The translations under genes were made by a program, and so were the position numbers. Positions 353-16,707 of a DNA stretch of 16,831 bases are shown here, in pieces; the stretch's first letter is position 1, and every line of letters begins with the position of its first letter. Under the pieces are notes generated by a model that saw nothing but the letters and a program-made list of their open reading frames with translations, searched no databases and was not told where the DNA came from. The stretch is from Nitrospirota bacterium (GTDB taxonomy: Bacteria; Nitrospirota; UBA9217), in contig JAOUEV010000065.1 of the NCBI GenBank assembly GCA_029858565.1, positions 1-16,831 of the forward strand, written 5' to 3'.

Positions 353-359
353 CAAATGT

Positions 360-381: not shown

Positions 382-391
382 TTGACGACCC

Positions 392-1015: not shown

Positions 1016-2397
1016 TAACGATACAACGAGAGCATGGTATTTTCCTGGCGGCGGCTATGTTTCTGCTGGCCCCTGTCGGCGGAGCAGGGGCGGAGGATGC
1101 TCCGCCGCCCGCTGCGGTGACCGCTCCGACCGCGACCGCGGGGACGGTCGAGGGAACGGTCTCAGCGCCGGTGTCCGCTCCGGCCGGGGCCGGTGAAGCA
1201 ATGACCGGCGGCAGGATGACCTTGGACCAGTGCGTTGCTACAGCGCTCAAGCGGAGCCCTTCCATCCGCGCCGCGGCCGGGGCCGTAAACGTGGGAAAGA
1301 GCAGGGTGGGGCAGGCCCGGTCCGCGTACTATCCCCAGGCCACGCTTTCCGGAGGCTACTCAAAATATTCCCTGGCCGCCGACCCGACGAACAGCGTCCA
1401 GGAGCAGTACACAGCCAGCGCCACGGTAACGCAGAACCTGTTCGATTTCGGCAGGACCTGGAACCAGGTCACGGTCCAGCAGAAGAACGCGGCCGCGGCC
1501 GGCGAGGACCTGCGGAACACGACCGCGACGATCGTGCTGAACGTGAAGCAGGCATACTACGGCCTCCTGCGCGCGGAAAAGAACCGGGACGTGCTGCGGG
1601 AGACCGTGCGGTCCTTTGAACAGCACCTGGAGCAGGCGAAAGGGTTCTTCGAGGCAGGGGTCAAGTCCAAGTTCGACGTGACCAAGGCCGAGGTGGACCT
1701 GAGCAACGCGAAGCTGAGCCTGATCCGCGCGGAGAACGCCTTCAGGATCGCGCGGGTGACCTTGAACAACGCCATGGGACTGTCCGACGCGCCCGAGTAC
1801 ACGATCGAGGATACGCTGGCATTCCAAAAGCGGACCATTGCCTTCGAAGAAGCCCGCGATCGGGCGTACGCGAACCGGCCGGACCTCCGGTCCCTGGCAG
1901 CCCGGCGGCAGGCCTCGGAAGCCGCGCTTTCCCTGGCGCGCTCGAACTACTATCCCACGGTCACGGGCAACGCGGCCTACACGCGCACCGAGGAGAACTT
2001 CCCGCCCGAACCGAGCGGGTGGAGCGCCGGCGTGACGCTGACGATCCCGCTCTTCAGCGGATTCCTGACGAACAGCCAGGTCCGGGAAGCGAAGGAGAAC
2101 CTCGTGATCGCCAGGGCGAACGAGGACGCGCTCAAACAGGGCGTGCTGCTCGAGGTCCAGCAGTCCTATCTCAACCTGCAGGAGGCGGAGGAGCGGGTGG
2201 CGGTTGCGGAACTGACGGTCAAGCAGGCCGAGGAGAACTACGCCATTGCCAAGGGAAGATACGAGGCGGGCGTGGGCAGCCCTATTGAAGAGGCCGACGC
2301 GCTCGTGGCCCTGAGCAATGCCAAGACCAATTACATCGCCGCTCTTGCCGATTACAAAGTAGCCGACGCGGCGCTCACGAAAGCGATGGGAGAGTAG
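1012..2397 (+). CDS. TolC-family outer membrane efflux protein
   Basis: 461 aa. Signal peptide, Pro/Ala/Thr-rich linker, two OEP repeats ('[15 protein letters not shown]', '[15 protein letters not shown]') and '[11 protein letters not shown]'. Confidence 0.93.
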
Positions 2398-2403
2398 AGA
2401 TCA

Positions 2404-3654
2404 ATGCGGAGTGATATGAATACAATGCGGAATGCGGAATGGGGAATGCGGAATCAGCAGGGAAAGACAATAAAAATCTTGCCGGTAGTCGTCCTGTCGG
2501 TTCTTGTCGTCATGTCCGCGCTGTCTGCCTGCTCCAAGGCAAAGCAGGCGCCGCCGAGGGTGGCGCCGGTTTTGGTGGAGACCGCGGACCGGAAGAACGT
2601 GCCGCTCCAGCTCAAGGCCATCGGGAATGTGGAGGCCTACAATACCGTGGCGGTCAAATCCCAGGTGAGCGGCGAGATCTCCGAGGTCTTTTTCCGCGAG
2701 GGCCAGGATGTGCGGGTAGGGACGCTTTTGTTCCGCATCGATCCGCGGCCTTTTGAATCAGTGCTCCGGCAGGCCGAGTCTGCCCTGGCCCGCGACCGCG
2801 CGCAGGCACGGAACGCGGCGGAGGAGTCGAAGCGCTACGAACAGCTTTCCCAGAAAGGCTTCGTGTCGCGGCAGGAGTATGACCGCGCCAGGACCAACGC
2901 CGACGCTCTCAACGCGGTCGTGCAGGTCGACGAGGCCGCGGTGGAGAACGCGCGGCTTCAGTTGGAGTACACCGCGATCATGTCCCCGATCACCGGAAGG
3001 ACCGGCGCGATCACAGTGCAGAAGGGGAATGTGGTGAAGGCGAACGATATTTCACTCGTGACGATCAACCAGGTCGCGCCGGTCTATGTAACCTTTTCCA
3101 TGCCAGAACAGGACCTTGCCGCGATCAGAAAGTACAAGTCAACCGGAGAACTGCATGTGGAAGCGGTTTTGTCCCCGGGGGCGAAGCCGATCAGCGGGAC
3201 GCTCACCTTCCTGGACAACAAGGTGAACACGGCGACAGGCACGATACTGCTCAAGGCGACCTTTCCGAACCAGGACCACGCGCTCTGGCCCGGCCAGTTC
3301 GTGGACGTGGTGTTGACGCTCACCACGGAAAAGGACCGCGTCGTTGTCCCGTCGCCGGCGATCCAGACCGGCCAACAGGGCCAGTTTCTCTTTGTGGTGA
3401 AAGAGGACATGACCGCGGAGATGCGGCCGGTGACCGTGGTCCGGACCTTCGACCGCTGGGCCGTTATCGACAAGGGCGTGCAACCCGGGGAGACCGTGGT
3501 GACCGACGGCCAGATCCGCATCGCGCCGGGCGCGAAGGTGGAGATCAAGAACGCGGAGCAGGAAACTGAAAAAGGGAAGGGTAACCACGGAGGCACGGAG
3601 ACACAGAGAAAGACGAAAGAGAATGAGCGAACACAGGCAGTGACGGGGAAGTAG
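2404..3654 (+). CDS. RND efflux periplasmic adaptor (MFP), MdtA-like lipoprotein
   Basis: Lipobox LSAC. Motifs 'AIGNVEAYNTVAVKSQVSG', 'EGQDVRVGTLLFRIDPRPF', 'SPITGRTG', 'LWPGQFV'. True start uncertain: several in-frame ATGs (2404, 2416, 2425, 2446), some inside a heptamer repeat. Confidence 0.92.
   Translation: MRSDMNTMRNAEWGMRNQQGKTIKILPVVVLSVLVVMSALSACSKAKQAPPRVAPVLVETADRKNVPLQLKAIGNVEAYNTVAVKSQVSGEISEVFFREGQDVRVGTLLFRIDPRPFESVLRQAESALARDRAQARNAAEESKRYEQLSQKGFVSRQEYDRARTNADALNAVVQVDEAAVENARLQLEYTAIMSPITGRTGAITVQKGNVVKANDISLVTINQVAPVYVTFSMPEQDLAAIRKYKSTGELHVEAVLSPGAKPISGTLTFLDNKVNTATGTILLKATFPNQDHALWPGQFVDVVLTLTTEKDRVVVPSPAIQTGQQGQFLFVVKEDMTAEMRPVTVVRTFDRWAVIDKGVQPGETVVTDGQIRIAPGAKVEIKNAEQETEKGKGNHGGTETQRKTKENERTQAVTGK
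2424..2454 (+). repeat. Heptamer tandem repeat (AATGCGG)n
   Basis: AATGCGG AATGCGG AATGGGG AATGCGG AAT, with an additional AATGCGG at 2403-2409. Confidence 0.85.
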
Positions 3655-3710
3655 GGACGGACTTCCAAGAAGGTTCGTTGCCGTTCTCCGTGTCTCTGTG
3701 TCTCTGTGGT
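3584..3710. repeat. 27-bp imperfect inverted repeat built from 8-nt units (CACRGAG core)
   Basis: Left arm 3584-3610 ACCACGGAGGCACGGAGACACAGAGAA; right arm 3684-3710 TTCTCCGTGTCTCTGTGTCTCTGTGGT. 23/27 Watson-Crick plus 3 G-U. Confidence 0.85.
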
Positions 3711-3724
3711 GAAGGTTTGTACCT

Positions 3725-6700
3725 ATGAACATTTCCGATATCTGGATACGCCGTCCTGTCATGACGACCCTCGTGATGCTCTCGATCCTCTTCGTGGGCG
3801 TGGCGGGCTATCGTCTGCTGCCGGTCTCGGCCCTTCCGAACGTGGACTTTCCGACCATCGTGGTGACCGCGAATGTACCGGGTGCTTCACCGGAAACCAT
3901 GGCGTCCGCCGTGGCGACTCCGTTGGAGAAGCAGTTCTCCACCATCGCGGGCATCGACACCATGACCTCGTCGAACACCCAGGGGATCACCTCGATCACC
4001 ATCGTGTTCAGCCTCTCCCGTGATATCGACGCCGCGGCCCAGGATGTGCAGTCGGCCATCGCCGCGGCCCAGCGAAATTTGCCGCAGGACATGCCTTCGC
4101 CGCCGTCATACCGCAAGGTGAACCCCGCCGATGATCCCGTTCTTTATCTCGCGCTCAGCTCTCCCACCTTGCCCTTGTCCCAGGTTGACGAATATGCCCA
4201 GACACTCCTTGCCCAGCGGATCTCCATGGTCAATGGCGTGGCGCAGGTGCAGGTGTTCGGGTCCCAGAAGTATGCGGTCCGGATCCGCCTCAATCCCCGG
4301 GCGCTCGCCTCGCGCGGCGTGGGGATCGACGAGGTTGCATCGGCGGTGCAGAAGGCGAACGTGAACCTTCCGACCGGCACGCTCTCGGGCGCCAGCCAGA
4401 TGTTCACCATTCAATCGAGCGGCCAGCTCATGAAGGCGGCGGACTACCGTCCGCTGATCGTGGCCTACCGCAGCGGTTCTCCGCTCCGGCTCCAGGACCT
4501 GGGCACGGTGATCGACAGCGTGGAGAACGACAAGATCGCGAGCTGGTACCGGGACACGCGGGCGATCGTGCTGGCCATTCAGCGCCAGCCGGGCACGAAT
4601 ACCGTGGCCGTGGTGGAATCCATCAAGAAACTGCTGCCGAGGTTCCGGGACCAGATGCCGGGATCGGTGAACCTCGATGTGCTCTTCGACCGGTCCATAT
4701 CGATCCGCGAATCGGTGGACGACGTGCAGTTCACGCTTGTGCTCACGGTCTGCCTCGTTGTCCTGGTGATCTTCCTGTTCCTGCGCAACCTTTCCGCCAC
4801 GGTGATCCCGAGCCTTGCGCTGCCCATGTCCATCATGGGCACCTTTGCGGTGATGTACGTAATGGGCTTCAGCATGAACAACCTGACGCTCATGGCGCTC
4901 ACGCTTTCCGTGGGTTTCGTGGTTGACGACGCCATCGTGATGCTCGAGAACATCATGCGCCACGTGGAGATGGGCGAAGGGGTGATGGAGGCCGCATTCA
5001 AAGGGTCCCGGGAGATCGGCTTTACCATCCTGTCCATGACCATCTCGCTCGTCGCTGTCTTCATCCCCGTGTTCTTCATGGCCGATATCATCGGCAGGCT
5101 GCTGCACGAGTTCGCCATCACGATCGGCGCATCGATCCTGATATCGGGTTTCGTGTCGCTGACGCTGACGCCCATGCTCGCATCGCGGTTCGTCAAGCCT
5201 CACGGCAGGGAACAGCACGGCAGGCTGTACAAGGCGTCGGAGCGGGTCTTCGACGCGATGCTCCAGTTCTATGAGCGGACCCTCGGGATCGTGTTCCATC
5301 ACCGGCTGATCACGATCATCGCGTCCCTCGTGCTGCTGGTCCTGACCGTGGTGCTGTTCATGATCATGCCCGGCGGGTTCCTTCCCAATGAGGACATGGG
5401 CCAGCTCTTCATCGCCACGGAAGCTGCCCAGGGGAGTTCCTTCGAATCCATGAAGGAGCGGCAGCTGAAGGTGGCGGAGATCGCGCTGAATGATCCGAAC
5501 ATTGAAGGCTTCATGTCCGCGATCGGCGCCGGCGGATCCAGTTCATCGTCGAACCAGGGCCGCATTTTCGCCCGGCTCAAGCCGCGGCATGAACGGGTGC
5601 ACGTCGAGAAGGTGGTCCAGGCGCTCCGGCCCAAGCTCGCGCAGGTGCCGGGTATTGTGGCCTATCCGCAGGTCCCCCCGCCGATCCGACTGAGCGGCAC
5701 CCTTTCCAAGAGCCCCTATCAGCTCACGCTCCAGAGCCCGGACATGGATGAGCTCTATGGCAGCGCGCAGAAGCTCGAAGCAGCGCTGCGCGAACTGCCG
5801 ATGCTGCAGGGCGTGACCAGCGACCTCCAGATAAAGAATCCCGAGGTGCGTGTGGAGATCGACCGCGATCGAGCCTCGGCGCTGGGCATCTCGGCGGCGC
5901 AGGTCGAGAGCGCGCTCCAGACAGCATACAGCGATCAGCAGGTCTCCACGATCTATGCGCCGAACAACCAATACCGCGTCATCATGCAGCTGGAGCCGGA
6001 GTACCAGCGCGATCCCGCGGCGCTCTCCTTGCTCTATCTCCGGTCGTCGTCCAACCAGCTCGTGCCGCTCCGGAGCGTGTCCAGGCTTTCCCAGGGATTC
6101 GGCCCCCTGTCGGTGAACCACCTGGGCCAGCTCCCGGCAGTCACGGTTTCCTTTGATACGAAGGCGGGAGTTTCGCTCAGTACCGCGGTGGACGCAGTGA
6201 AGAAGAAAGCGGCGGAAGTGCTGCCCGGGACGGTTTCTACGAGCTTCCAGGGGACCGCCCAGGCTTTCCAGAAATCGACCCAGGGCCTGGGGCTCCTGCT
6301 GCTCGGCGCGACTCTCGTGATCTATATCGTGCTCGGTATCCTGTACGAGAGCTTCATCCATCCGATCACGATCCTTTCAGCCCTGCCTTTTGCCGGGTTC
6401 GGAGCGCTGGTAACCCTGCTCCTGACCGGAAACGATCTCAATGTCTATGCATTCGTGGGCGTCATTCTGCTCGTGGGCTTGGTGAAGAAGAACGGCATCA
6501 TGATGATCGACTTCGCGCTGGAAGCGCAGAGGGCCGAAGGCCTCGACCCCGAAAAGGCGATCTTCAAGGCCAGCATCGTCCGGTTCCGGCCGATCATGAT
6601 GACCACCATGGCCGCGCTCCTGGGCACGCTGCCGATCGCGCTCGGTTTCGGAGCGGGCGCCGAGGCGCGGAGACCGCTCGGTCTTGCTGTGGTCGGAGGC

Positions 6701-6877
6701 CTGCTGTTCTCCCAGACCCTTACGCTGTACGTGACGCCGGTGGTGTATATTTACATGGACAGCTTCCAGCACTGGATCTCCGGCAAGGGATGGTTCCATC
6801 CCATGAAACGGCGTGAAGGGAAGAGGCGTGATGCCGAGGAATTGCATAAGGAGTTGGAAAGAGAGATTAATGTCTGA
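3725..6877 (+). CDS. RND family efflux transporter permease, MdtB/MdtC-like (HAE1)
   Basis: 1050 aa. Motifs 'IRRPVMTTL', 'LPVSALPNVDFPTI', TM4 'GFVVDDAIVMLEN', 'GLVKKNGIMMIDFA' and 'RFRPIMMTTMAA'; the proton-relay residues are intact. Confidence 0.95.
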   Translation: MNISDIWIRRPVMTTLVMLSILFVGVAGYRLLPVSALPNVDFPTIVVTANVPGASPETMASAVATPLEKQFSTIAGIDTMTSSNTQGITSITIVFSLSRDIDAAAQDVQSAIAAAQRNLPQDMPSPPSYRKVNPADDPVLYLALSSPTLPLSQVDEYAQTLLAQRISMVNGVAQVQVFGSQKYAVRIRLNPRALASRGVGIDEVASAVQKANVNLPTGTLSGASQMFTIQSSGQLMKAADYRPLIVAYRSGSPLRLQDLGTVIDSVENDKIASWYRDTRAIVLAIQRQPGTNTVAVVESIKKLLPRFRDQMPGSVNLDVLFDRSISIRESVDDVQFTLVLTVCLVVLVIFLFLRNLSATVIPSLALPMSIMGTFAVMYVMGFSMNNLTLMALTLSVGFVVDDAIVMLENIMRHVEMGEGVMEAAFKGSREIGFTILSMTISLVAVFIPVFFMADIIGRLLHEFAITIGASILISGFVSLTLTPMLASRFVKPHGREQHGRLYKASERVFDAMLQFYERTLGIVFHHRLITIIASLVLLVLTVVLFMIMPGGFLPNEDMGQLFIATEAAQGSSFESMKERQLKVAEIALNDPNIEGFMSAIGAGGSSSSSNQGRIFARLKPRHERVHVEKVVQALRPKLAQVPGIVAYPQVPPPIRLSGTLSKSPYQLTLQSPDMDELYGSAQKLEAALRELPMLQGVTSDLQIKNPEVRVEIDRDRASALGISAAQVESALQTAYSDQQVSTIYAPNNQYRVIMQLEPEYQRDPAALSLLYLRSSSNQLVPLRSVSRLSQGFGPLSVNHLGQLPAVTVSFDTKAGVSLSTAVDAVKKKAAEVLPGTVSTSFQGTAQAFQKSTQGLGLLLLGATLVIYIVLGILYESFIHPITILSALPFAGFGALVTLLLTGNDLNVYAFVGVILLVGLVKKNGIMMIDFALEAQRAEGLDPEKAIFKASIVRFRPIMMTTMAALLGTLPIALGFGAGAEARRPLGLAVVGGLLFSQTLTLYVTPVVYIYMDSFQHWISGKGWFHPMKRREGKRRDAEELHKELEREINV

Positions 6878-6922
6878 AAAACAATACGAAGAAGAATCAG
6901 AACAAGGAAGCAACGAATCTTA

Positions 6923-7014
6923 TCTCGCGCAAAGCCGCAAAGGCGCAAAGGAAGTCAAAGCCAGGAGTTGACCGGGTCTTTCTTTCCTTTTCAGCTTGGC
7001 GGCTTTGCGCGAGA
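6923..7014. repeat. 20-bp inverted repeat built from (S)CGCAAAG octamers
   Basis: Left arm 6923-6942 TCTCGCGCAAAGCCGCAAAG, with a third unit GCGCAAAG to 6950; right arm 6995-7014 CTTGGCGGCTTTGCGCGAGA. 19/20 complementary. Confidence 0.85.
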
Positions 7015-7051
7015 CGCATTTTTGTTTCGACATGGCTGTCCCGGGTAGAAT

Positions 7052-8218
7052 ATGAGCATTATGAATAAACGAAACGATAATATTCGCACCTCGCCCGCCT
7101 TGACCGCGGGAATCTTCCTCCTCGCACTGGTTGCCGCGAGCTGCGGCAAGGACGGCGTAGAGTACCGCACCGAGCCGGTTACCAGGGGCGATATCCGGGA
7201 GACCGTTACTGCTACCGGGACCGTGAATCCCGTGACGACCGTGCAGGTGGGGACCCAGGTCTCGGGCACGATCAAGGATATCTTTGTTGATTTCAACTCC
7301 CTGGTCAGGAAAGGTCAGCTGATAGCGCAGATCGACCCGGCCTTTTTCGAGACCCAGCTGGCACAGTCGCGGGCCAACGCGGACCGGGCGCTGGCCGCGC
7401 TCCGGGACGCCGAGCGGGTGCTGAACCAGAACAAGGCGCTCTATCCCAAACACCTGATCGCCAAGAACGACTACGATGCCTCGGTCACGGCCCAGGAGAG
7501 CGCCGCGGCCCAGGTCGCCCAGGCCCTTGCCGCGCTCAAGGCTGCGGAGACGAACCTGAGCTACACCAAGATCTTTTCCCCGGTCGACGGCGTGGTGATC
7601 TCGCGGAACGTTGACGTGGGCCAGACCGTTGCCGCGAGCTTCCAGACGCCCACGCTGTTCACGATCGCCCAGGACCTGACAAAGATGCAGATCAACACGA
7701 ACGTTGCCGAGTCGGACATCGGACGCGTGCAGGTCGGCCAGGCAGTGGAGTTCATTGTGGACGCATATCCGGACACCAACTTCAAGGGAAGCGTGCGGCA
7801 GGTCCGGCGGGCGCCCATTACGGTCCAGAACGTGGTCACCTACGATGTGGTTGTGCAGGTCCCCAATCCCGGCATGAAGCTCATGCCCGGCATGACCGCG
7901 AACGTCGCCATCGTGATCACGACCAAGGATGAGGTGCTTCGCATCCCGAACTCGGCCCTGCGGTTCCGGCCTGAACGGTCCGCAGACCAGGCCGCGGCAA
8001 AGCCAAAGGCAGCAGCGGAGAAAAAAGGTCCCGCGGGACCGTCGGTCTGGGTGCAGGAGAACAACAAGCCAAAGCGCGTGGCCGTTACCACGGGCATCAG
8101 CGACGGGATCTGGACCGAGGTCGTCAGCGGCGAACTGAAGGAAGATCAGCAGGTGATCGTCGAGACGGTCAAGAAGAACAAGGGCGCGTCGCAGTCCGGC
8201 CCGCCAAGGATGTTCTGA
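7052..8218 (+). CDS. MacA-like periplasmic adaptor (MFP) of an ABC exporter
   Basis: 388 aa. Lipobox-like 'VAASC', 'VTATGTVNPVTTVQVGTQVSG', 'VDFNS-VRKGQLIAQID', 'GQTVAASFQTPTLF', 'LMPGMTA'. Start could be 7052 or 7061. Confidence 0.92.
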   Translation: MSIMNKRNDNIRTSPALTAGIFLLALVAASCGKDGVEYRTEPVTRGDIRETVTATGTVNPVTTVQVGTQVSGTIKDIFVDFNSLVRKGQLIAQIDPAFFETQLAQSRANADRALAALRDAERVLNQNKALYPKHLIAKNDYDASVTAQESAAAQVAQALAALKAAETNLSYTKIFSPVDGVVISRNVDVGQTVAASFQTPTLFTIAQDLTKMQINTNVAESDIGRVQVGQAVEFIVDAYPDTNFKGSVRQVRRAPITVQNVVTYDVVVQVPNPGMKLMPGMTANVAIVITTKDEVLRIPNSALRFRPERSADQAAAKPKAAAEKKGPAGPSVWVQENNKPKRVAVTTGISDGIWTEVVSGELKEDQQVIVETVKKNKGASQSGPPRMF

Positions 8219-8910
8219 TGTCCCTCATTCAGGCACAGAATATCACCAGGATCTACTCGCTCGGCGACGTGGAGCTCAGGGCGCTCGGCGGCGTGACGGT
8301 CACCATTGACCGCGGCGAGTTCGTGGCTGTCATGGGGCCGTCGGGTTCCGGAAAGTCCACGTTCATGAACATCCTGGGCTGCCTGGACAAACCCACGGAA
8401 GGCCGCTACCTTGTCGAGGGCATTGACATCGGCGGCCTTTCCCGTGATGACCTCGCGGAGATCAGGAACAACAAGCTTGGCTTCGTGTTCCAGGGATTCA
8501 ACCTGCTCTCGCGCACCTCGGCGCTCGAGAACGTGGAGCTGCCGATGCTGTACAACGGCCATGCCGCGCGGGAGCGGCACGACCGGGCCCGGGAAGCGCT
8601 CCGGTCCGTAGGTCTTGCGGGACGGGAAGACCACCACCCCAATCAGCTTTCCGGCGGACAGCAGCAGCGCGTCGCGATCGCCCGTGCGCTGGTGAACCGT
8701 GCGCCGATCATCCTTGCCGACGAACCAACCGGGAACCTCGATACAAAGACCAGCCGGGAGATCATGGAGCTCTTGGTCCGCCTGAACAGCGATTCAGGCA
8801 TTACGATCATCCTGGTGACCCATGAGCACGACATCGCGGCCTACAGCAGACGGATCATCCGGTTCAAGGACGGGGTTGTTGTCAGCGACGAGCTGACGCA
8901 AAAGGATTAA
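8218..8910 (+). CDS. ABC transporter ATP-binding protein (MacB/LolD-like NBD)
   Basis: Walker A GPSGSGKST, signature LSGGQQQRV, Walker B ILADEPTGNLD, H-loop VTHE. Translationally coupled to the MFP gene (TGATG). Confidence 0.96.
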   Translation: MSLIQAQNITRIYSLGDVELRALGGVTVTIDRGEFVAVMGPSGSGKSTFMNILGCLDKPTEGRYLVEGIDIGGLSRDDLAEIRNNKLGFVFQGFNLLSRTSALENVELPMLYNGHAARERHDRAREALRSVGLAGREDHHPNQLSGGQQQRVAIARALVNRAPIILADEPTGNLDTKTSREIMELLVRLNSDSGITIILVTHEHDIAAYSRRIIRFKDGVVVSDELTQKD

Positions 8911-8990
8911 AATGTCGAACAAGGATTAGGAGGAGTAAGGATTAATACTCTAAACCTTTGATCCTGTAATCCTGTATTTCAGTAATCCTG
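8902..8990. repeat. AGGATTA / TAATCCT inverted repeat cluster
   Basis: AGGATTA at 8903, 8922 and 8938, AGGAGTA at 8931; the opposing units are TGATCCTG-TAATCCTG (8959-8974) and TAATCCTG (8983-8990). Confidence 0.65.
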
Positions 8991-8998
8991 GAGTTAGT

Positions 8999-10228
<1,230 letters not shown>

Positions 10229-10251
10229 GTATCTTCTTCAGGACAAACCGC

Positions 10252-10280
10252 TTGCTTCGCAGGTACCCTTCCGTTATTAT
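10252..10280 (+). promoter_or_regulatory. Putative sigma70 promoter for the radical SAM-pgeF-yggS cluster
   Basis: TTGCTT (10252-10257), 17-nt spacer, TATTAT (10275-10280). Confidence 0.45.
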
Positions 10281-10314
10281 TCCTCAGCACTAAAGACGAA
10301 AGCAAAATATTGGA

Positions 10315-10404
10315 ACTGCGAAGGCGCGAGGGTCTCGAGGAAGGCCTAAATTGAACTTAAGAATATGGCAGTTGACGTCCTCGCGCCCTTTGCGTCTTTG
10401 CGGT
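10315..10404. repeat. 27-bp imperfect inverted repeat built from CGCRARG units
   Basis: Left arm 10315-10341 ACTGCGAAGGCGCGAGGGTCTCGAGGA; right arm 10378-10404 TCCTCGCGCCCTTTGCGTCTTTGCGGT. 20/27 Watson-Crick, 5 G-U, 2 mismatches. Confidence 0.8.
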
Positions 10405-10436
10405 AAAAAGCGTGATCGGTTTGTTCCCTGTTAAAC

Positions 10437-12164
10437 ATGAACCGCACCCTGCAAGATAAGCTCGACAAACTGCTCGCGTCCGAGCGCGGCGCCATCAGCA
10501 AGCCCCGCGACCGGGCGGTGAGCGTCGCACTTGCTTACCCGAACACCTACCACGTGGGCATGTCCAACCTCGGTTTGCACCGTATCTATTCGCTGCTGAA
10601 CAGCCGCGAGGACACGCGGTGCGAGCGTGTATTCCTTCCCGACGAAGAAGATCTGCCGGAATACGACGGCGCCGGCAACCCGCTCTTTGCTCTTGAGAGC
10701 AGGCAGCCGGTGAAGGACTTCGACATCCTCGCGTTCTCGGTCTCCTTTGAACAGGACTACCTGAACGTGATCGAGATCCTGCGGCTATCGGGCATTCCGC
10801 CGGAGCGGTCGCAGCGGGGAAGCGGTCACCCGCTGGTGGTTCTCGGAGGCATCTGCTCGTTCTTCAATCCCGAGCCCCTTGCGGACTTTTTCGACGTTGT
10901 GCTCACGGGCGAAGGAGAGGAACTGGCAGGCCGGTTTGCCGCTGCTTACGCGCAGCACCGGCAGCAGGGACGGGACGAGCTGCTCCAGGAGATCGCAAAA
11001 CTGGCGGGGGCCTATGTCCCGGAATATTACGAGGTCCGGTATGATCAGGACGGAACGATCAGGGAACGGAAAGCCCTTGTGCCCGAAGCGCCGGAGATGA
11101 TCATCAAGCAGGTTGCCCGGGACCTCGACGCAAAGCCGGCTTCGACCGTCATATTGACGCCCGAGACCGAGTTCAGCAATATGCACCTGAGCGAGGTAAC
11201 GCGGGGCTGCGGACGCCACTGCCGGTTCTGCATGGCGGGCTATATCTATCTTCCTCCCCGGAACCTGGGGCTTGACGCTGCAAAGGCCCAGGCAAAGCAT
11301 GCAGACGAAACCTGCGGCAGGATCGGACTGGTCGGCGCCGCGCTTTCCGACTATCCCGAGATCGAGGGTCTCTGCGACGCGATCACCGGCAGCGTCTCGG
11401 TCTCATCGCTTCGCGCGGATTCGCTGAGCGAAAAACTGGTCGCAAGGCTTGCCGCAAGCGGACACAAGACCATTGCGCTGGCACCTGAGGCGGGTTCGGA
11501 ACGGCTCCGGAAAGTGATCAACAAAGGGGTGACCGAAGGGGATATCCTGGCAGCCGCGGACAAGGTGTTCAGGGCGGACATCCCGAACCTGAAGCTTTAC
11601 TTCATCATCGGACTGCCCACGGAAACGCAGGAGGATGTGGATGGGATCATCGATCTTGCGAAAAAAGTGCACGAGGTCCAGCTTGACCATGCCCGTCCGA
11701 GGGGAAGGATCGGCAGGATCACACTGTCGGTCAACTCCTTTGTGCCCAAACCGTTCACCCCGTTCCAGTGGGAGCCCATGGAAGCGGTGTCAAGCCTGAA
11801 CAGGAAGATTCGCAACCTGGAGAAGGCGGTAAAGAACATCGGGAACATGAACATCATCCACGACCTTCCCAAGTGGGAGTATTTCCAGGCAATGCTCTCC
11901 CGCGGGGACCGGAGGCTCGGAAAGCTGCTGCTCGCGGCCCACGGAAAGAGCGGGGACTGGAAGGCCGCTGCCAGGGAGACCGGCACGGACATGGACTTTT
12001 ATGTGACAAGGAGGCGCGGCCTCACCGAGGTGCTTCCCTGGGATTTCATTGACATCGGAGTGCGAAAAGAATATCTTAGGAACGAATTCAACCGGGGCAT
12101 GGAAGGGAAGTTCACGCCGCCCTGCAAGGTGGGAACGTGCAGGACCTGCGGGGTGTGCCGATAA
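10437..12164 (+). CDS. Radical SAM protein with B12-binding-like N-terminal domain and C-terminal Cys cluster (TIGR03960-like)
   Basis: 575 aa. CxxxCxxC in 'RGCGRHCRFC', N-terminal 'YPNTYHVGMSNLG', 'APEAGSERLR', 'YFIIGLPTE', 'FVPKPFTPFQW', C-terminal 'CKVGTCRTCGVC'. Confidence 0.88.
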   Translation: MNRTLQDKLDKLLASERGAISKPRDRAVSVALAYPNTYHVGMSNLGLHRIYSLLNSREDTRCERVFLPDEEDLPEYDGAGNPLFALESRQPVKDFDILAFSVSFEQDYLNVIEILRLSGIPPERSQRGSGHPLVVLGGICSFFNPEPLADFFDVVLTGEGEELAGRFAAAYAQHRQQGRDELLQEIAKLAGAYVPEYYEVRYDQDGTIRERKALVPEAPEMIIKQVARDLDAKPASTVILTPETEFSNMHLSEVTRGCGRHCRFCMAGYIYLPPRNLGLDAAKAQAKHADETCGRIGLVGAALSDYPEIEGLCDAITGSVSVSSLRADSLSEKLVARLAASGHKTIALAPEAGSERLRKVINKGVTEGDILAAADKVFRADIPNLKLYFIIGLPTETQEDVDGIIDLAKKVHEVQLDHARPRGRIGRITLSVNSFVPKPFTPFQWEPMEAVSSLNRKIRNLEKAVKNIGNMNIIHDLPKWEYFQAMLSRGDRRLGKLLLAAHGKSGDWKAAARETGTDMDFYVTRRRGLTEVLPWDFIDIGVRKEYLRNEFNRGMEGKFTPPCKVGTCRTCGVCR

Positions 12165-12176
12165 TCGAAATCAACA

Positions 12177-12211
12177 AGTGCGGAGTGCGAAGTGCGGAGT
12201 GCGGAGTGGAA
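12177..12211 (+). repeat. Heptamer tandem repeat (AGTGCGG)n
   Basis: AGTGCGG AGTGCGA AGTGCGG AGTGCGG AGTGGAA; same ARTGCGG family as 2424-2454. Confidence 0.85.
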
Positions 12212-12974
12212 AGAAAATAAGAAAGGAAATGGAAAGAGCGCTGAATTATTACTGATCCCGGCGTTTGAGACGGTTCCGAACATCAGGCATGGGTTCACGA
12301 CCAGGGCCAACGGCCTTGGAGCCCGGATCGGAGGGTTTAAATCTCCTGATGATTGGAACCTGGTTGCCGATTCCTTCGGCATAGCGCCTGACAAACTCGT
12401 GACCGTGCAGCAGGTGCACGGAGACGAGATCGTTGTTGTGAAGGGGAACGATTACCAGGATATGCGGCCGCGCCAGGCTGACGGTCTGGTGACGGACAGT
12501 CCGGGCATCGCTATCGGTATTGAAACCGCTGATTGCGTTCCTGTGCTGATCATGGATCCGCAAACGCCGTCAGTCGCTGCGGTACACGCAGGCTGGCGCA
12601 GCACAGTGAAGAGGATCGTGCAAAAGGCGGTCAGCCGCATGCAGCACGAGTTCGGGTCCGATCCCTCGCGTATGATCGCTGCCATCGGCCCGGCCATCGG
12701 GCCCGAGTGCTATGAAGTGGATGAACCGGTCATGGGCCCGGTGCGCGGGGCATTTCCCTTCTGGAAGGAGATCGCGGAAGCGCGGGGGAACGGCCGCTGG
12801 AGCCTGGACCTGCGGAAGCTGAACAGCAGGGAATTAGTGCAGGCCGGGTTGAAAGAACGGAATATCCACAGCCTTGGCATGTGCACCTCCTGCAGGCGGG
12901 ACCTGTTCTATTCCTTCCGCGCCGAAGGCAGGACCGGCAGGATGCTGTCGGCGGTGATGATAGAGCAGCGGTAA
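12192..12974 (+). CDS. pgeF: Peptidoglycan editing factor PgeF / YfiH (laccase-domain, purine nucleoside phosphorylase-like)
   Basis: Motifs 'HGFTTR', 'QVHG', 'ADGLVT', 'TADCVPVL', 'AAVHAGWR', 'IGPAIGPECYEV' and 'FYSFRAEGRTGRM'. GTG start lies inside the repeat. Confidence 0.92.
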   Translation: MRSAEWKENKKGNGKSAELLLIPAFETVPNIRHGFTTRANGLGARIGGFKSPDDWNLVADSFGIAPDKLVTVQQVHGDEIVVVKGNDYQDMRPRQADGLVTDSPGIAIGIETADCVPVLIMDPQTPSVAAVHAGWRSTVKRIVQKAVSRMQHEFGSDPSRMIAAIGPAIGPECYEVDEPVMGPVRGAFPFWKEIAEARGNGRWSLDLRKLNSRELVQAGLKERNIHSLGMCTSCRRDLFYSFRAEGRTGRMLSAVMIEQR

Positions 12975-13033
12975 GGGGTAACGGGTAGGGGCAAGAGACG
13001 AGTGAGAGCTCGTGAAACGTGAGAAGCGAGACG
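12970..13033 (+). repeat. Degenerate heptamer arrays in the pgeF-yggS gap
   Basis: GGTAAGG GGTAACG GGTAGGG (12970-12990), then CTCGTGA AACGTGA GAAGCGA GACG (13009-13033). Confidence 0.55.
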
Positions 13034-13078
13034 ATTGGTATCAACGCCGTCCTCAGTGTCCAAGAATGTTGTTAGCCT

Positions 13079-13765
13079 ATGTCCATTGCTCACAATCTCA
13101 AGACTGTCCTGGATCGCATCTCCTTTGCCGCCAGCCACGCCGGGCGCGAACCTTCATCGGTCCGCCTTGTGGTCGTGACCAAGACCGTTGACATCGATCG
13201 CATCCGCGAAGCAGTGGCTGCCGGGGGCCTGCTCCTTGGCGAGAACCGTGTGCAGGAGGCGAAGGAGAAGATCGAGAAGCTCGGGAGTATCGCGTCCTGG
13301 CATCTGATCGGCCGGCTTCAGACGAACAAGGCGAAATACGCGGTCAAGCTCTTTGACCTGATCCATTCCGTGGACAACATCGAACTCGCCAGGGAACTGG
13401 ACAAGCAGGCCGCGAAGACCGGGAAGGTGCAGGACGTCCTGATCGAGGTGAGCATTGCCGGTGAAGCCGCCAAAGCCGGAGTGGCGTTGAGCGCAGCCGC
13501 AGATCTGGTGCGGGAAGCGGCAAAGCTCAAGAACATCAGGATCAAGGGTCTGATGACCATGCCGCCCTATTCCGACGAACCGGAAGCGTCACGGCCTTAT
13601 TTCCGGAAGCTTAGCGAACTGCGCGACAGGCTCGAACAAGAAAGTATCCCAAACGTCTCGCTGAAGGAACTCTCCATGGGCATGAGCGGGGACTATGAAG
13701 TGGCGATCGCCGAAGGCGCGACGCTGGTGCGCGTGGGAACGGCGATATTTGGGGAAAGACACTGA
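13079..13765 (+). CDS. yggS: PLP homeostasis protein YggS/PROSC
   Basis: Motifs 'LVVVTKT' (PLP lysine), 'GENRVQE', 'WHLIGRLQTNK', 'GLMTMPP', 'LSMGMSGDY' and 'VRVGTAIFGER'. Confidence 0.96.
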   Translation: MSIAHNLKTVLDRISFAASHAGREPSSVRLVVVTKTVDIDRIREAVAAGGLLLGENRVQEAKEKIEKLGSIASWHLIGRLQTNKAKYAVKLFDLIHSVDNIELARELDKQAAKTGKVQDVLIEVSIAGEAAKAGVALSAAADLVREAAKLKNIRIKGLMTMPPYSDEPEASRPYFRKLSELRDRLEQESIPNVSLKELSMGMSGDYEVAIAEGATLVRVGTAIFGERH

Positions 13766-13904
13766 AAGATCCTTTGCCACGGAAGCGGCGGATAACGGCT
13801 TATGAAGGACCATGACAAGACATTGCATTATCCGGAGTTATCATATGTTCTTTCAGTGTCTTCAGTGTCAAAAAACATTGAGACGTTTCCGACTCTTCCG
13901 TGGC
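13756..13904. repeat. Two interleaved inverted repeats (A-B-A'-B')
   Basis: A 13756-13769 AAGACACTGAAAGA pairs with A' 13849-13862 (14/14). B 13776-13792 GCCACGGAAGCGGCGGA pairs with B' 13888-13904 (15/17). Confidence 0.75.
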
Positions 13905-13929
13905 TAACGAATTTCTCTATGGAGGTCCC

Positions 13930-14814
13930 ATGGCGATCGACAAGAAAATAGCTTTCCTCGGCGGCGGGAACATGGCCGAGGCCCTGATCAAGGGACTGGT
14001 GGTGGCGGACGAGGCGCACGTGCAGAACATCACGGTCACCGACGTGCACCAGAGCCGGCTGGACCTCCTGCGCAGGACCTTCGGCGTCACGGTGACCCAG
14101 AGCAACAGCGACGCGGTCAAGGCCGCGGACATCGTGATCCTGAGCGTGAAGCCCCAGGTCATGGACGCGGTCCTCGCGGACATCAGCCAGGCAGCGGACA
14201 GCAGCAAGCTCGTGATCTCGATCGCCGCGGGCGTAACGCTCGAGCGCATCGAGAAGGGCCTGGCCAGGGGACCGCGGGTGATCCGGGTGATGCCGAACAC
14301 GCCGGCGCTGGTGCTGGCAGGAGCCGCGGGCATCGCCGCGGGAAAGACCGCTACCCAGCCGGACATGCTTATGGCAAAGGAGATCTTCGGTTCCGTGGGC
14401 CGCGCCGTGGAGGTGAATGAGAAGCTGATGGACGCGGTGACCGGTTTGTCCGGCAGCGGGCCTGCCTACGTGTTCACGATGATCGAGGCGCTGGCCGACG
14501 GAGGCGTAAAGGTGGGGATCCCCCGGGCTTTGGCCCTGGAGCTCGCGGCCCAGACGGTCTTCGGGAGCGCCAAGATGGTGCTGGAGACCAAGGAGCATCC
14601 GGCCAAGCTCCGGGACATGGTCGCCTCTCCCGGCGGCACCACGATCGCGGGCATGCACGAGCTGGAAAAGGGAAAGCTCCGGGCCACGCTGATCAGCGCG
14701 GTCGAGGCTGCAACGAAGCGGGGGATGGAACTGGGCGGCAAAACGGTCTCGCCGCGACGGGAGCAGAGGAAAAAAATGACCGCAAAAAGAGGACGGTCAG
14801 CAAAGCGAAAGTAA
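13930..14814 (+). CDS. proC: Pyrroline-5-carboxylate reductase
   Basis: ATG at 13930 follows GGAGG (13921-13925). Rossmann motif 'IAFLGGGNMAEA', plus 'VKPQ', 'RVMPNTP', 'TGLSGSGPAY' and 'SPGGTT'. Confidence 0.96.
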   Translation: MAIDKKIAFLGGGNMAEALIKGLVVADEAHVQNITVTDVHQSRLDLLRRTFGVTVTQSNSDAVKAADIVILSVKPQVMDAVLADISQAADSSKLVISIAAGVTLERIEKGLARGPRVIRVMPNTPALVLAGAAGIAAGKTATQPDMLMAKEIFGSVGRAVEVNEKLMDAVTGLSGSGPAYVFTMIEALADGGVKVGIPRALALELAAQTVFGSAKMVLETKEHPAKLRDMVASPGGTTIAGMHELEKGKLRATLISAVEAATKRGMELGGKTVSPRREQRKKMTAKRGRSAKRK

Positions 14815-14873
14815 GAAGGATATTACCGCAGAGGTCGTGGAGAAAATAGTTCAGTTATAAGAAAGGAGGCATT

Positions 14874-15176
14874 ATGGGCAACATCATCTTGGGAGTGGCG
14901 CAGGTCCTGGACATCCTGCTCGGCGCCTACAAGTGGATCATCATCATCCGGGCGCTGATCTCCTGGGTCAATCCCGATCCCTACAACCCGATCGTGCAGT
15001 TCCTGGTGAAGGTGACCGAGCCGGTGCTCAAGCCGCTCCGGAAGCTCGTTCCGACCTGGAGGATGGGCTTCGACCTGTCCCCGCTCATCGCGATCCTGGT
15101 GCTCATCTTCCTGGAGTACGCCCTCATCGGGAACCTGCGGGAGTGGGGCCTGAGCATGAAGTACCGGGTGCAGTGA
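14874..15176 (+). CDS. yggT: YggT/YlmG family membrane protein
   Basis: 100 aa, strong AGGAGG RBS. Motif 'IIIRALISWVNPDPYNPIVQFLVKVTEPVLKPLRK...FDLSPLIA'. Confidence 0.93.
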   Translation: MGNIILGVAQVLDILLGAYKWIIIIRALISWVNPDPYNPIVQFLVKVTEPVLKPLRKLVPTWRMGFDLSPLIAILVLIFLEYALIGNLREWGLSMKYRVQ

Positions 15177-15192
15177 TCAAAAGGAGCGAACC

Positions 15193-15672
15193 ATGAAAGT
15201 CACGCCGCTCGATATACAGCAGAAGCGATTCCATGTGGCCTTTCGGGGTTACGAACGGACCGAAGTGGACGCGTTCCTCGACACGGTGCGCGAAGAGATG
15301 GAGGACCTGGTCCGGGAAGTGACCGAGCTCCGGGAGTTCCATGATTCCTACGATGAACGCATGCGGGAGTTCCGTGACCGCGAAGAGACGCTCAAGAGCA
15401 CGCTGCTGACCACGCATAAGTTGGCCGAGGACATCAAGGTAAATTCACGCAAGGAAGCGGACCTGATCGTGAAGGACGCGGAGCTGAAATTCCACCAGAC
15501 CCTTGAGCAGGCGCGGCAGGAAAAGCTCAAGCTCGACGCGGAGATCATCGAGCTCAGACGCAAGAAGCACCATTTCCTGCAGGACCTGAGAAAAATGCTC
15601 CAGATGCACATGGAGATGGTGAGTTTCGAAGGGAGCGCCGGTGAAGGCGAAGCAGGGCCCGCAGCCGGGTAA
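15193..15672 (+). CDS. divIVA: DivIVA domain-containing protein
   Basis: N-terminal 'MKVTPLDIQQKRFHVAFRGYERTEVDAFL' followed by coiled coil 'ADLIVKDAE'; AGGAG RBS. Confidence 0.9.
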   Translation: MKVTPLDIQQKRFHVAFRGYERTEVDAFLDTVREEMEDLVREVTELREFHDSYDERMREFRDREETLKSTLLTTHKLAEDIKVNSRKEADLIVKDAELKFHQTLEQARQEKLKLDAEIIELRRKKHHFLQDLRKMLQMHMEMVSFEGSAGEGEAGPAAG

Positions 15673-15955
15673 GGCCGGTCCGGACGCGGCAGTCCTCTCG
15701 GTCCGGATCCAACCGCGGGCATCGAAGAGGGGCATCTCCCGCATGGAGGACGGATCGCTCAAGATCCGGTTGACCGCACCGCCCGTGGATGGGGCAGCGA
15801 ACGACGCTTTGATAAAATATCTTGCCGAGACCTTCAGCGTTCCCCGGTCGCAGGTGGAGATCCTTTCGGGCCACACCGGCCGCCAGAAGATCATCAGGAT
15901 CAGCGGAATCGGCCAGCAGGACGCCGAGGGGATGTTGTATAGCAGCGGCAAATAG
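15641..15955 (+). CDS. yggU: DUF167 / YggU family protein
   Basis: Motif 'LSVRIQPRASK...LKIRLTAPPVDGAANDALIKYLAETFSVPRSQVEILSGHTGRQK'. The GTG start overlaps the end of divIVA; exact start uncertain. Confidence 0.88.
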   Translation: MKAKQGPQPGKAGPDAAVLSVRIQPRASKRGISRMEDGSLKIRLTAPPVDGAANDALIKYLAETFSVPRSQVEILSGHTGRQKIIRISGIGQQDAEGMLYSSGK

Positions 15956-15962
15956 CGTAGTA

Positions 15963-16026
15963 TATAGTAGTAAGTAGTAAGCAGTAAGTTGTAAGCATAC
16001 TTACTACTTTAGAGCTTACTACTATA
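15963..16026. repeat. (TAGTAAG)n heptamer array with inverted CTTACTA copies, upstream of ssrA
   Basis: TAGTAAG TAGTAAG CAGTAAG TTGTAAG (15968-15995). Perfect 12-bp IR TATAGTAGTAAG (15963-15974) / CTTACTACTATA (16015-16026). Alternative 10-bp IR 15972-15981 / 16000-16009. Confidence 0.8.
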
Positions 16027-16044
16027 AAACTGATTTTAATGAAA

Positions 16045-16394
16045 GGGGGCGACAGGCTTCGACGGGGATCGCGAGGTTGAAAGTTGCATGCCGAGGTGCC
16101 GTGGGGCTCGTTAAACACGCGGCAAAACACAACTGCCAATAACGAACTGGCAATCGCTGCTTAACTAAGTAGCGCGTCTCCCGGCTGCCGCCTGAGCGGC
16201 TGAAGAGATGTCAAAATTCGGGCTGGTCTTTCCGCTATGTCCGGGGCGGAAGGATGAGAAAAACCGGGCTGGCTGATCCCGGAGCTTTCCCTGAGGCGCC
16301 GGAGGATGCGAGAGCTGTAAACGAGGGGATAAGCATGTATGAGCTTTCAGCTGATGGTTTTCGGACGCGGGTTCAATTCCCGCCGCCTCCACCA
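16045..16394 (+). ncRNA. ssrA: tmRNA (transfer-messenger RNA), one-piece, 350 nt
   Basis: 5' GGGGGCG pairs with 3' CGCCTCC-A-CCA, with a G3-U wobble (Ala identity). 'TTCGAC' near the 5' end; T-arm GCGGGTTCAATTCCCGC. Tag ORF at 16135-16164. Confidence 0.97.
16135..16164 (+). other. tmRNA proteolysis tag reading frame (A)ANNELAIAA*
   Basis: GCC AAT AAC GAA CTG GCA ATC GCT GCT TAA, downstream of the pk1 region; ends in the canonical Ala-Ala degron. Confidence 0.9.
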
Positions 16395-16462
16395 TAACTA
16401 ATTGATATTACAGGGTTAATTTGATTTGCGGAATCGAATTAAGCGGAATGGTGTTTTTGATG

Positions 16463-16500
16463 AGAGCTAACTCATTGTAAGAGTTAGCTCTTTTCTTTTT
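16463..16500 (+). terminator. Rho-independent terminator after ssrA
   Basis: AGAGCTAACTC-ATTGTAA-GAGTTAGCTCT is an 11-bp perfect stem, followed by TTTCTTTTT. Confidence 0.8.
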
Positions 16501-16671
16501 CCGCAATGACTGATGAACAGGGGTATCTTTTGGGGTACGCTGTTCAACGATAGCGCCGGTAATTCAAGCTATTGGACAACCTATTAAATAGCGGACGTGG
16601 GATTTGAATTGGCGTCCAGGGAAGTCCGATGTTCAGGCGCTCTGCTTTGATCTGCATTTCCGAAATCGTCC

Positions 16672-16700
16672 TTGCGTTCTTGTAGCTTATATGCTACAAT
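16672..16700 (+). promoter_or_regulatory. TA-module promoter with overlapping palindromic operator
   Basis: TTGCGT (16672-16677), 17-nt spacer, TG-c-TACAAT (hexamer 16695-16700). Palindrome TTGTAGC-N6-GCTACAA at 16680-16699. Confidence 0.75.
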
Positions 16701-16707
16701 AGCACAC

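Follow-up and report, generated by a model that had tools for sequence, protein, structure and literature searches.

Closest described systems

Ten of the 11 intergenic gaps of at least 16 nt in a 16,831 nt stretch of DNA from a Nitrospirota bacterium carry arrays of words of 7–10 nt, many of them paired as inverted arms. The exception is the gap at 15176–15193, and no repeat was found at any of the three overlapping gene junctions. This stretch, called the window throughout, is contig C22, positions 1–16831 on the + strand, of a genome of 3.92 Mb in 144 contigs with 57 % G+C. The gap count, which comes from reading of the sequence, bears out an earlier note on this DNA that had placed short-period repeats in nearly all intergenic gaps. 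On balance, we regard the window repeats as belonging to two related families of word-armed cassettes, of which they would be the members lacking a gene, either as paired empties or as solo arms, the arrays probably being sites for the proteins encoded by the respective full-length cassettes. Below, G000 is the window's own genome, G001, G003, G008 and so on are its relatives, and L numbers denote cassette loci.

Paired arrays have been described in Geobacter metallireducens, where 21 paired sites consist of three tandem TCTCCGTS[Y] units on opposite strands at variable distance, and where further classes of four octamers and five heptamers are reported and read as sites for regulators of the IHF or HU type (Aklujkar 2009, PMC2700814). 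The repeats here resemble Geobacter classes 1–3 in forming opposite-strand pairs at variable distance, in having three to five tandem units of 7–8 nt, in being intergenic and in falling into several classes per genome. Reverse complementation of TCTCCGTS, the Geobacter class 2 unit, gives the window word CACGGAGA, and the paired opposite-strand arrangement that defines classes 1–3 occurs in 89 pairs of the present genome. The passages of the Geobacter report considered here contain no link to GxxExxY or four-helix-bundle genes, no comparison of relatives and no period rule; its supplementary alignments, which might show neighbouring genes, lie outside those passages.

Intergenic heptamers are the second point of comparison. 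Arrays of GGGNATC occur in Xanthomonas and Nostoc, with 70–75 convergent inverted pairs in Xanthomonas (Rehm et al. 2015, PMC4692102), and TAACTGA arrays occur in Beggiatoaceae, cyanobacteria and Bacteroidetes (MacGregor 2015, PMC4679880). As in the parts of those reports covered here, the present heptamer arrays lie between co-directional genes near stop and start codons, prefer about four units and are suspected of horizontal spread. The published arrays were explained as G-quadruplexes or translational regulators, whereas most heptamer words here are not quadruplex-forming, and the terms 'four helix', 'S23' and 'intervening sequence' occur zero times in either text. Sense-oriented arrays of about four heptamers near stop or start codons were found in our genome as well, including those at window positions 2424 and 12177. 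The cyanobacterial STRR sequences are further short tandem repeats of this intergenic kind.

A protein-coding parallel is provided by Coxiella burnetii, in which an intervening sequence of the 23S rRNA carries an S23p (PF05635) open reading frame (ORF) and is excised by RNase III (PMC4990558). It shares with the elements studied here the same protein family within complementary arms, a horizontally acquired and selfish character, and transcription by the host if expressed at all. It differs in lying in helix 45 of the 23S rRNA, whereas the present elements lie between protein, tRNA and transfer-messenger RNA (tmRNA) genes, have arms of repeated words, are mostly gene-less and are known from DNA sequence only. 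Full-length relatives in G000 do have a PF05635 ORF within complementary arms; the window copies contain no ORF, and lie between protein genes or before the tmRNA gene rather than in helix 25 or 45 of a 23S rRNA gene.

The REPIN-RAYT systems of Bertels and Rainey are said to comprise one or a few repeat-flanked genes together with many dispersed, gene-less inverted doublets, and coexisting families reportedly each have a gene of their own. The logic of a gene plus dispersed doublets is shared, but here the cargo is a PD-(D/E)XK nuclease or a four-helix bundle instead of a Y1 transposase, the arms are tandem words, the loops are unconserved and the genome's Y1 genes have unrelated repeats. The description of the window elements as REP/REPIN-like serves as an analogy only. 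In the literature searched, supplementary files being outside the search, we found no published link between such arrays and the two gene families. The repeats themselves have thus already been published; what is new here is the period rule, the word-tree agreement, the co-distribution, the pairing tests and the stop-codon placement.

Word arrays are enriched at gene junctions and follow a fixed design

Tandem arrays were counted in junction zones, defined as intergenic DNA plus 75 nt gene margins (1.11 Mb in total), and compared with three dinucleotide shuffles. Junction zones held 212 period-7 arrays (17–25 after shuffling) and 191 period-8 arrays (20–26), an 8–10-fold enrichment, while gene interiors showed a small period-7 excess (93 versus 62–71) and no period-8 excess (70 versus 91–95). 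Inverted pairs with arms of at least 16 nt, both at junctions, numbered 349 against 16 in shuffled sequence. The proposal that the repeats are genome-wide accordingly held, and they are concentrated at junctions.

All 8–10 nt families follow a single word grammar, CRCNRAG (CGCAAAG, CACGAAG, CGCAGAG, CACGGAG and others), and 162 arrays contained at least three such words, with none in shuffled sequence. The similar outer ends singled out in the earlier note are indeed shared among arms, and are reducible to this grammar; individual families keep their outer ends, for example TCTCGCG..., TTTTACCAC... and TTTTACCGC.... Polarity was equally regular: 89 arrays were followed within 700 nt by a reverse-complement array in purine-first order, and the reverse order was seen once. 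Since purine-first order is identical on both strands, it marks the design of the element and not its orientation. These 89 inward pairs have about three words per arm and loops of 4–700 nt. Copy number was bounded, with a median of 2.9 copies for period-8 arrays (136 of 191 between 2.5 and 3.5) and of 4.1 for period-7 arrays, only six of 212 exceeding 5.5.

The heptamers show their own regularities. Among 271 ANTGCRR words in G000 the second base was G in 160, T in 70, A in 41 and never C, so that each word contains GTG, TTG or ATG. The ANTGCRR matches listed for relatives likewise have no C at this position. Nearly half of the sense-oriented solo heptamer arrays (19/42) have a downstream ORF that is open into the array. 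We rejected the idea that heptamer arrays generally supply stops in three frames, as a stop triplet occurred in 26 of 135 sense-oriented arrays and 109 were stop-free; it is true of the run at window 12970. A tRNA gene cluster at G000:C14:128100-129300 has inter-tRNA spacers made up of ANTGCGG heptamer arrays and hairpins, an arrangement resembling the intervening sequences of stable-RNA operons.

Two small gene families lie between the arms, and the cargo type predicts the period

The genome contains seven PF13366 and five PF05635 genes, which scored as TIGR04256 and TIGR02436, respectively. All seven of the former and four of the five latter lie between complementary arms, the fifth having only a downstream array, and their arm words match the window families AGTGCGR, AGGATTA, GAGACGA, CACAGAG, GCCACGGAAG and CGCWAAG. 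Similarity to the cargo proteins across the whole genome was confined to these 12 known places. The window was confirmed to hold neither a GxxExxY nor a four-helix-bundle gene, and its elements, whose arm words are shared with gene-bearing copies in the same genome, fit their earlier description as empty versions. The link of similar arms to GxxExxY and four-helix-bundle genes, proposed in the earlier note for other genomes, proved correct in G000, in 58 loci of related genomes and in 71 of 78 analysable loci across phyla.

We surveyed arm period at 70 loci, comprising the 12 own copies and, outside G000, 58 loci obtained as the best match per genome from 41 genomes of the same family. The best period of GxxExxY arms (36 loci) was 8 in 17, 9 in 11, 10 in six and another value in two, but 7 in none, whereas of the 25 four-helix-bundle loci that could be scored, 23 had period 7; in a further nine the arms were weak or missing or the flanks too short. 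Restricting the comparison to clear periodicity left period 7 in 0/16 GxxExxY and 20/21 four-helix-bundle loci. GxxExxY arms have about three words of 8–10 nt and four-helix-bundle arms about four to five of 7 nt. Cargo type thus predicts arm period.

A second survey gathered 80 GxxExxY loci from several bacterial phyla and two archaeal metagenome-assembled genomes, of which 78 were analysable; the search used 10 closer GxxExxY sequences, the alignment of 36 having no stretch conserved enough. Arms were present in 71 of the 78, with period 8 in 36, 9 in 24, 10–12 in 10, 5 in one and 7 in none, and at least two CRCNRAG words occurred in 57 of those 71.

Cargo genes were co-oriented with their upstream neighbour at 63 of 65 callable loci. 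Being placed at junctions and co-oriented with the upstream host gene, the cassettes probably depend on transcription of the host operon. Pairwise identity of flanks, arms, spacers and coding sequences in 10 cassette pairs, compared with regard to the boundary of the mobile unit, gave noisy numbers, the pairs being too diverged. At one locus, L012 (G000:C100:32549-33281), the GxxExxY gene sits between two complete and near-identical hairpins, a direct duplication of about 90 nt. Such a layout is the expected outcome of recombination between a hairpin on a circle and a hairpin in the chromosome.

The GxxExxY cargo is a protein of about 125 residues that scored 150 and 138 bits (cut-off 35) against TIGR04256/PF13366 PDDEXK_3, a family listed as of unknown function and subject to multiple transfers in the part of the survey considered here (Steczkiewicz 2012). 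Residues G18, G20, E23, Y26, D63, E73 and K75, which make up a GxGxxExxY motif and a D...ExK core, were invariant in 36 proteins. The structural model (predicted local distance difference test score 95.8) is a minimal PD-(D/E)XK fold; its nearest structures, Cas4 SSO0001 (Z 8.2), a BpuSI domain (7.5) and archaeal Hjc (6.8), represent a generic fold match only. Foldseek returned no match in the PDB at E <= 0.001, and the protein has no solved relative by sequence. Four-helix-bundle cargo scored 128.4 and 80.6 bits (cut-off 24) against TIGR02436/PF05635, and its solved relatives 2gsc and 2rld each contain five chains per entry. Avd proper was rejected as an identity for these proteins, NF033474 scoring only 45 against a cut-off of 80.

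TIGR04256 and TIGR02436 each comprise a very large number of tiny genes with no known function, and the two repeat classes have long lacked an agreed explanation. With the two repeat classes recognised as arms of cassettes that carry the two gene families, each class gains a candidate protein partner and a simple predictive rule that make it testable at the bench. There are also consequences for annotation, as arrays give host genes start codons and C-terminal tails, break assemblies and occupy most operon junctions here.

Words follow the gene in trees, in occurrence and at orthologous junctions

Mapping word class onto a tree of 36 GxxExxY proteins required 11 changes, compared with a mean of 22.5 after shuffling (0/200 shuffles as low), and the CACRGAG clade had support of 100/99. 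Close GxxExxY proteins with the same words were also found at non-homologous loci, indicating that the gene and its arms travel as a unit. Other close copies were orthologous residents, one GxxExxY locus being common to five genera (L009, L058, L066, L065 and L061). At this locus three genomes have CACAGAG words in both arms, two of them in all six positions and G000 with fewer clear ones, and the remaining two have CACGGAG, with a single variant word in one of these; the change of words there is concerted.

Occurrence across genomes told a similar story. Among the 41 genomes, the 32 with a GxxExxY match had 2–170 three-word arrays, against 0–4 for a reversed-pattern control, and the nine without a match had 0, 1, 16, 1, 0, 1, 1, 0 and 0. 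The contrast was also present within genera g11 and g30. ANTGCRR heptamers tracked the four-helix-bundle gene more loosely.

Both operons of the window are syntenic in 10 relatives, with coding DNA about 70–80 % identical. Occupancy of junctions was judged by reading sequences, the automatic table being conservative and missing degenerate arrays. Orthologous junctions in these relatives were empty, held different word families or contained a four-helix-bundle gene, and gap length at one such junction ranged from 9 to about 1000 nt. Between AcrB and the second membrane-fusion gene, a CGCAAAG hairpin is found only in G000, while at the junction that follows, where the G000 genes overlap, word arrays are present in G001, G003, G008 and G012. 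The junction between YggS and the next gene has seven word families in seven genomes and none in two others. At the junction of the solo arm at 14824, heptamer arms enclose a four-helix-bundle gene in G008 and G017. On each of the points by which the earlier note had left itself open to refutation, namely abundance over shuffled sequence, bias of position and polarity, and variation with enclosure of cargo at orthologous junctions, the data came out in its favour. Taken together, they confirm the observation and support its interpretation as gene-less cassette arms.

Interpretation and alternatives

The comparative data firmly identify the class of element, while its mechanism is inferred. One type of cassette (type O) has arms of about three CRCNRAG words of 8–10 nt in a fixed, inward-facing inverted arrangement and in its full-length form encloses a GxxExxY PD-(D/E)XK nuclease gene. 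The other (type H) has about four to five 7 nt words per array and in its full-length form encloses a gene of the four-helix-bundle ('23S rRNA intervening-sequence', Avd-like) family. Such cassettes appear to have been gained and lost on the time-scale of genera and to have crossed phylum and domain boundaries. Each array most likely presents the cognate cargo protein with several binding sites in succession, and this protein may act in trans on gene-less copies and so maintain or spread them.

Several points weigh against this interpretation. All of the evidence is comparative, and any binding, cleavage or transposition is putative. If gene-less elements spread by copying, young copies should share loops, and this was not seen; if they were decayed cassettes, remnants of cargo would be expected, and none was found in 66 gene-less loops of at least 60 nt. 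At least one abundant family, GACACTGAGG, has no gene-bearing copy in this assembly. In G018, 16 arrays were present and the GxxExxY gene was not found, in an assembly that is 91 % complete and in about 430 contigs; more generally, kin are not independent in the 41-genome comparison, and some of its genomes are incomplete. Agreement between words and the protein tree follows from gene and arms moving together and is by itself no proof of recognition. The equality of own and cross complementarity reported below would also be expected from neutral decay after a burst, and the evidence for selection consists of unrelated loops together with arms kept across genera at orthologous sites.

A more far-reaching proposal, which we offer tentatively, is that the arrays and the two tiny genes constitute an undescribed, self-propagating cassette made up of a gene plus its own binding words. 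The GxxExxY nuclease would read three words of 8–10 nt per arm and the four-helix-bundle protein four to five heptamers. Spread would proceed without transposase chemistry, because there is no target duplication and the loops are unique; one possible route is that the nuclease triggers homing of the gene, with dispersed word arms serving as its 'landing pads'. Heptamers at stop and start codons might double as frame-independent punctuation, and as the second base of ANTGCRR is never C, every word would offer a usable start codon.

A mainly RNA-level role is somewhat improbable. The arms would form stems like those of intervening sequences, cut by RNase III, or would stabilize or insulate mRNA in the manner of REP (repetitive extragenic palindromic) stems; the cargo mRNA would be freed from host transcripts, and gene-less copies would be processing or stability sites. 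The case for this includes the presence of the same four-helix-bundle family within the RNase III-excised Coxiella sequence (PMC4990558), the finding that most Xanthomonas heptamer repeats are transcribed (Rehm 2015, PMC4692102), and the far better folding of five of six window hairpins than of their shuffles. The near-uniform co-orientation of cargo and upstream gene (63/65 loci) also fits, as do hairpins between tRNA genes and the sense bias of solo heptamer arrays, which stood at 39:13 in one count and 42:16 in another, with 23 of the 42 sense arrays starting between -1 and +13 nt from the upstream stop codon.

Pairing tests pointed the other way. In 53 hairpins that have three words in each arm, agreement at the variable word position was 51 % with the pairing partner and 60 % with non-partner words, and spacer bases were complementary in 22/106 cases in the pairing register against 26/106 out of register. 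Arm complementarity with the own partner averaged 19.90 of 23 positions, against 20.29 with the arms of other copies of the family, and 1995 of 2000 permutations reached the observed value; compensatory covariation between arms is thus absent. Mismatches compatible with G:U pairing showed no strand asymmetry in 86 hairpins (32 sense versus 24 antisense, p 0.35; 110 other mismatches). Solo arms of type O had no significant strand bias (49:38). The pairs showed no clear preference for gap type, with 78, 6 and 5 in co-directional, divergent and convergent gaps compared with 2575, 329 and 374 gaps overall, so that convergent and divergent gaps held about their share of the pairs (5 and 6 of 89, these gap types making up 11 % and 10 % of all gaps). 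No Rfam family other than tmRNA was matched in the window. At orthologous sites, arms persist across genera while loops randomize. To judge from these comparisons, the conserved functional unit appears to be the word and not the base-paired stem, and we take this to mean that selection acts on each array as a series of sequence-specific sites, the potential to form hairpins then being a by-product of the inverted layout. It is because of these pairing tests that an RNA-level function is ranked second and not first.

It is unlikely that the arrays are host regulatory sites, bound by a nucleoid protein (IHF or HU, for instance) or by a chromosomal global regulator, into which small genes were inserted by chance. 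Such sites were proposed for the Geobacter metallireducens pairs (Aklujkar 2009, PMC2700814), and words conserved without pairing covariation are what protein sites would be expected to show. A conserved regulon, however, would not vary among relatives in both occupancy and word family at the same junction, and the arrays here do; they also vanish together with the GxxExxY gene, comprise many word families per genome, and flank the same gene family with the same words in other phyla and an archaeon.

Still less probable are ordinary non-autonomous transposable elements of the miniature inverted-repeat kind (MITEs) or REPINs, which a transposase encoded elsewhere, for instance a Y1 enzyme of the IS200/RAYT type, would copy as a whole. 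In keeping with this are the inverted repeats at the termini, the scattered intergenic copies, the discrete families whose outer ends are conserved, and the presence/absence polymorphism; the genome also has 12 Y1_Tnp matches, while an IS200-like ORF occupies one window junction in G008. Yet none of the 12 Y1 genes (PF01797) has word-array arms, and those that are flanked have their own unrelated inverted repeats. Target-site duplications did not exceed chance in the 89 pairs, their length being 0 in 69 compared with 56/89 in the control. Only seven of 3403 loop pairs showed any similarity, all nested or marginal, and loops within families ranged from 22 to 121 nt; loops unrelated between copies imply that whole elements were not copied. 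We accordingly rejected REPIN-RAYT identity, on the grounds of the Y1 genes and the loops, and MITE identity, on the grounds that inverted arms were present with no direct repeat beyond chance.

Two loci with Y1 genes were noted separately. A Y1_Tnp gene at G000:C82:36838-37488 has 32 nt inverted repeats (27/32 complementary) unrelated to the word arrays and is a candidate for a bona fide RAYT/REP-like or IS200-like unit. At the junction between the ABC ATPase and MacB genes, G008 (L046, G008:C9) carries roughly 1 kb of inserted DNA, including an IS200/Y1-transposase-like ORF, at the very place of the AGGATTA hairpin of G000.

Finally, slippage or composition by-products of a microsatellite-like kind, devoid of element identity, would account for short tandem units in non-coding DNA, but are close to refuted by copy numbers bounded at about 3 or about 4–5 and not open-ended, the fixed inverted polarity (89:1), discrete families, the 8–10-fold enrichment over dinucleotide shuffles and the association with cargo genes.

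Elements of the window

The period rule assigns the elements starting at 3584, 6923, 10315, 13756 and 14824 to the GxxExxY type and those at 2424, 8902, 12177, 12970 and 15963 to the four-helix-bundle type. Arrays were delimited with Tandem Repeats Finder (TRF) and inverted arms with an inverted-repeat finder, and RNA folds were compared with 200 dinucleotide shuffles; solo arrays and runs are all on the + strand, and paired elements are given without strand. The hairpin architecture proposed in the earlier note stood for the six hairpins, five of which had 0/200 shuffles folding as well; it failed at 12970. Its reading of 14824 as a solo arm was right, and 2424 and 12177 proved to be solo arrays also.

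Among the GxxExxY-type elements, the hairpin at 3584–3710 (TRF, inverted-repeat finder and fold) consists of three CACGGAGA-type words and three complementary words around a loop of 75–77 nt. Its TRF arrays, 3586–3609 and 3685–3708, have period 8 and 3.0 copies each and are mutually complementary, its fold (3580–3712) has z -5.65, and a gene-bearing copy of its word class is at G000:C142:9750. The upstream ORF has its stop codon (3652–3654) in the loop, and the 5' arm lies within its C-terminal tail, which is not conserved. In this membrane-fusion ORF (2404–3654) the 5' arm and loop encode roughly the final 25 residues (window 3540–3654), and the proteins of relatives cease aligning 4–27 residues earlier in six of the seven relatives read, the difference being 0 in G017. 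It seems that the insertion took the place of the gene's original C-terminus and stop codon.

The hairpin at 6923–7014 (TRF, inverted-repeat finder and fold) belongs to the CGCAAAG family, with outer end TCTCGCG and three words per arm at period 8. Its arms, 6923–6953 and 6984–7014, are 31 nt long and match at 87 %, TRF reports an array at 6927–6951 (period 8, 3.1 copies), and the fold (6918–7018) has z -6.63. A gene-bearing copy is at G000:C142:57083, and the hairpin is absent from this junction in eight of nine relatives read. CGCGAAG/CGCAAAG-type words with the outer end ACTGCGAAG/ACCGCAAAG form the hairpin at 10315–10404, recognised from its fold (10312–10408, z -4.74) and a 3' arm array at 10388–10402.

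At 13756–13905, a compound element combines a GACACTGAAAG pair (13756/13849) with an interleaved GCCACGGAAG...GGATAAC pair (13776/13888). The inverted-repeat finder returned 13770–13792/13888–13910 and 13756–13776/13842–13862, TRF an array at 13852–13869 with period 9, and the fold (13756–13905) z -3.12. The second arm type flanks a GxxExxY gene at G000:C14:144561. The two word families cross in the order A B ... A' B', so that nested folding of both stems is impossible; nested hairpin-in-hairpin layouts are seen in relatives G001 and G008. The solo arm at 14824–14841, recognised from its sequence and from family members, is of the 5' type, with ACCGCAGAGG followed by a degenerate second word, and belongs to the ACCGCAGAGG-GACGCGGAGG family.

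The first of the four-helix-bundle-type elements is a solo AATGCGG array detected by TRF at 2424–2454 (period 7, 4.4 copies). It separates the outer-membrane gene from the membrane-fusion gene downstream, and the probable ATG start of the latter falls in the last word of the array. The word class is of the four-helix-bundle type, and a similar array occupies the same junction in relative G009. A looser hairpin at 8902–8990 has three spaced AGGATTA words followed by three TAATCCT words (TRF 8943–8990, period 8, 67 % matches). Its fold (8898–8992) is weaker, at z -2.32 with 6/200 shuffles as good, and the same heptamers flank a four-helix-bundle gene at G000:C123:4358. The solo AGTGCGG array at 12177–12208 (TRF, period 7, 4.6 copies) begins 13 nt past the stop codon of the radical-SAM gene and occupies the gap up to the next gene; its words form both arms of the four-helix-bundle gene at G000:C93:8506.

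At 12970–13033, sequence inspection revealed a degenerate purine-rich heptamer run, GGTAAGG GGTAACG GGTAGGG and then GAGACGA-like units. It has no complementary arm, TRF was silent at score 30, and the fold of 12966–13060 (z +0.94) is not that of a hairpin. The first unit holds the stop codon of the upstream gene, and the three units place TAA, TAA and TAG in three frames. GAGACGA-type words flank a four-helix-bundle gene at G000:C7:9242. The last element, a hairpin of AGTAGTA/AGTAAGT heptamers at 15963–16026, lies 19 nt upstream of the tmRNA gene and was detected by TRF (15966–15995, period 7, 4.3 copies), the inverted-repeat finder and folding (15958–16030, z -3.53).

Genes of the window

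All genes of the window are on the + strand. By annotation they comprise a TetR regulator, an outer-membrane factor, a membrane-fusion protein and an AcrB pump; a second membrane-fusion protein, an ABC ATPase and a MacB permease; a radical-SAM enzyme, a Cu-oxidase_4 protein and a YggS-like protein; and four smaller genes followed by the tmRNA gene at 16045–16394, which was the sole match of Rfam covariance models to the window. Downstream of the tmRNA gene, positions 16651–16831 are 97 % identical to the start of contig C61, which points to an assembly break and to an element, repeated or integrated, at the ssrA site.

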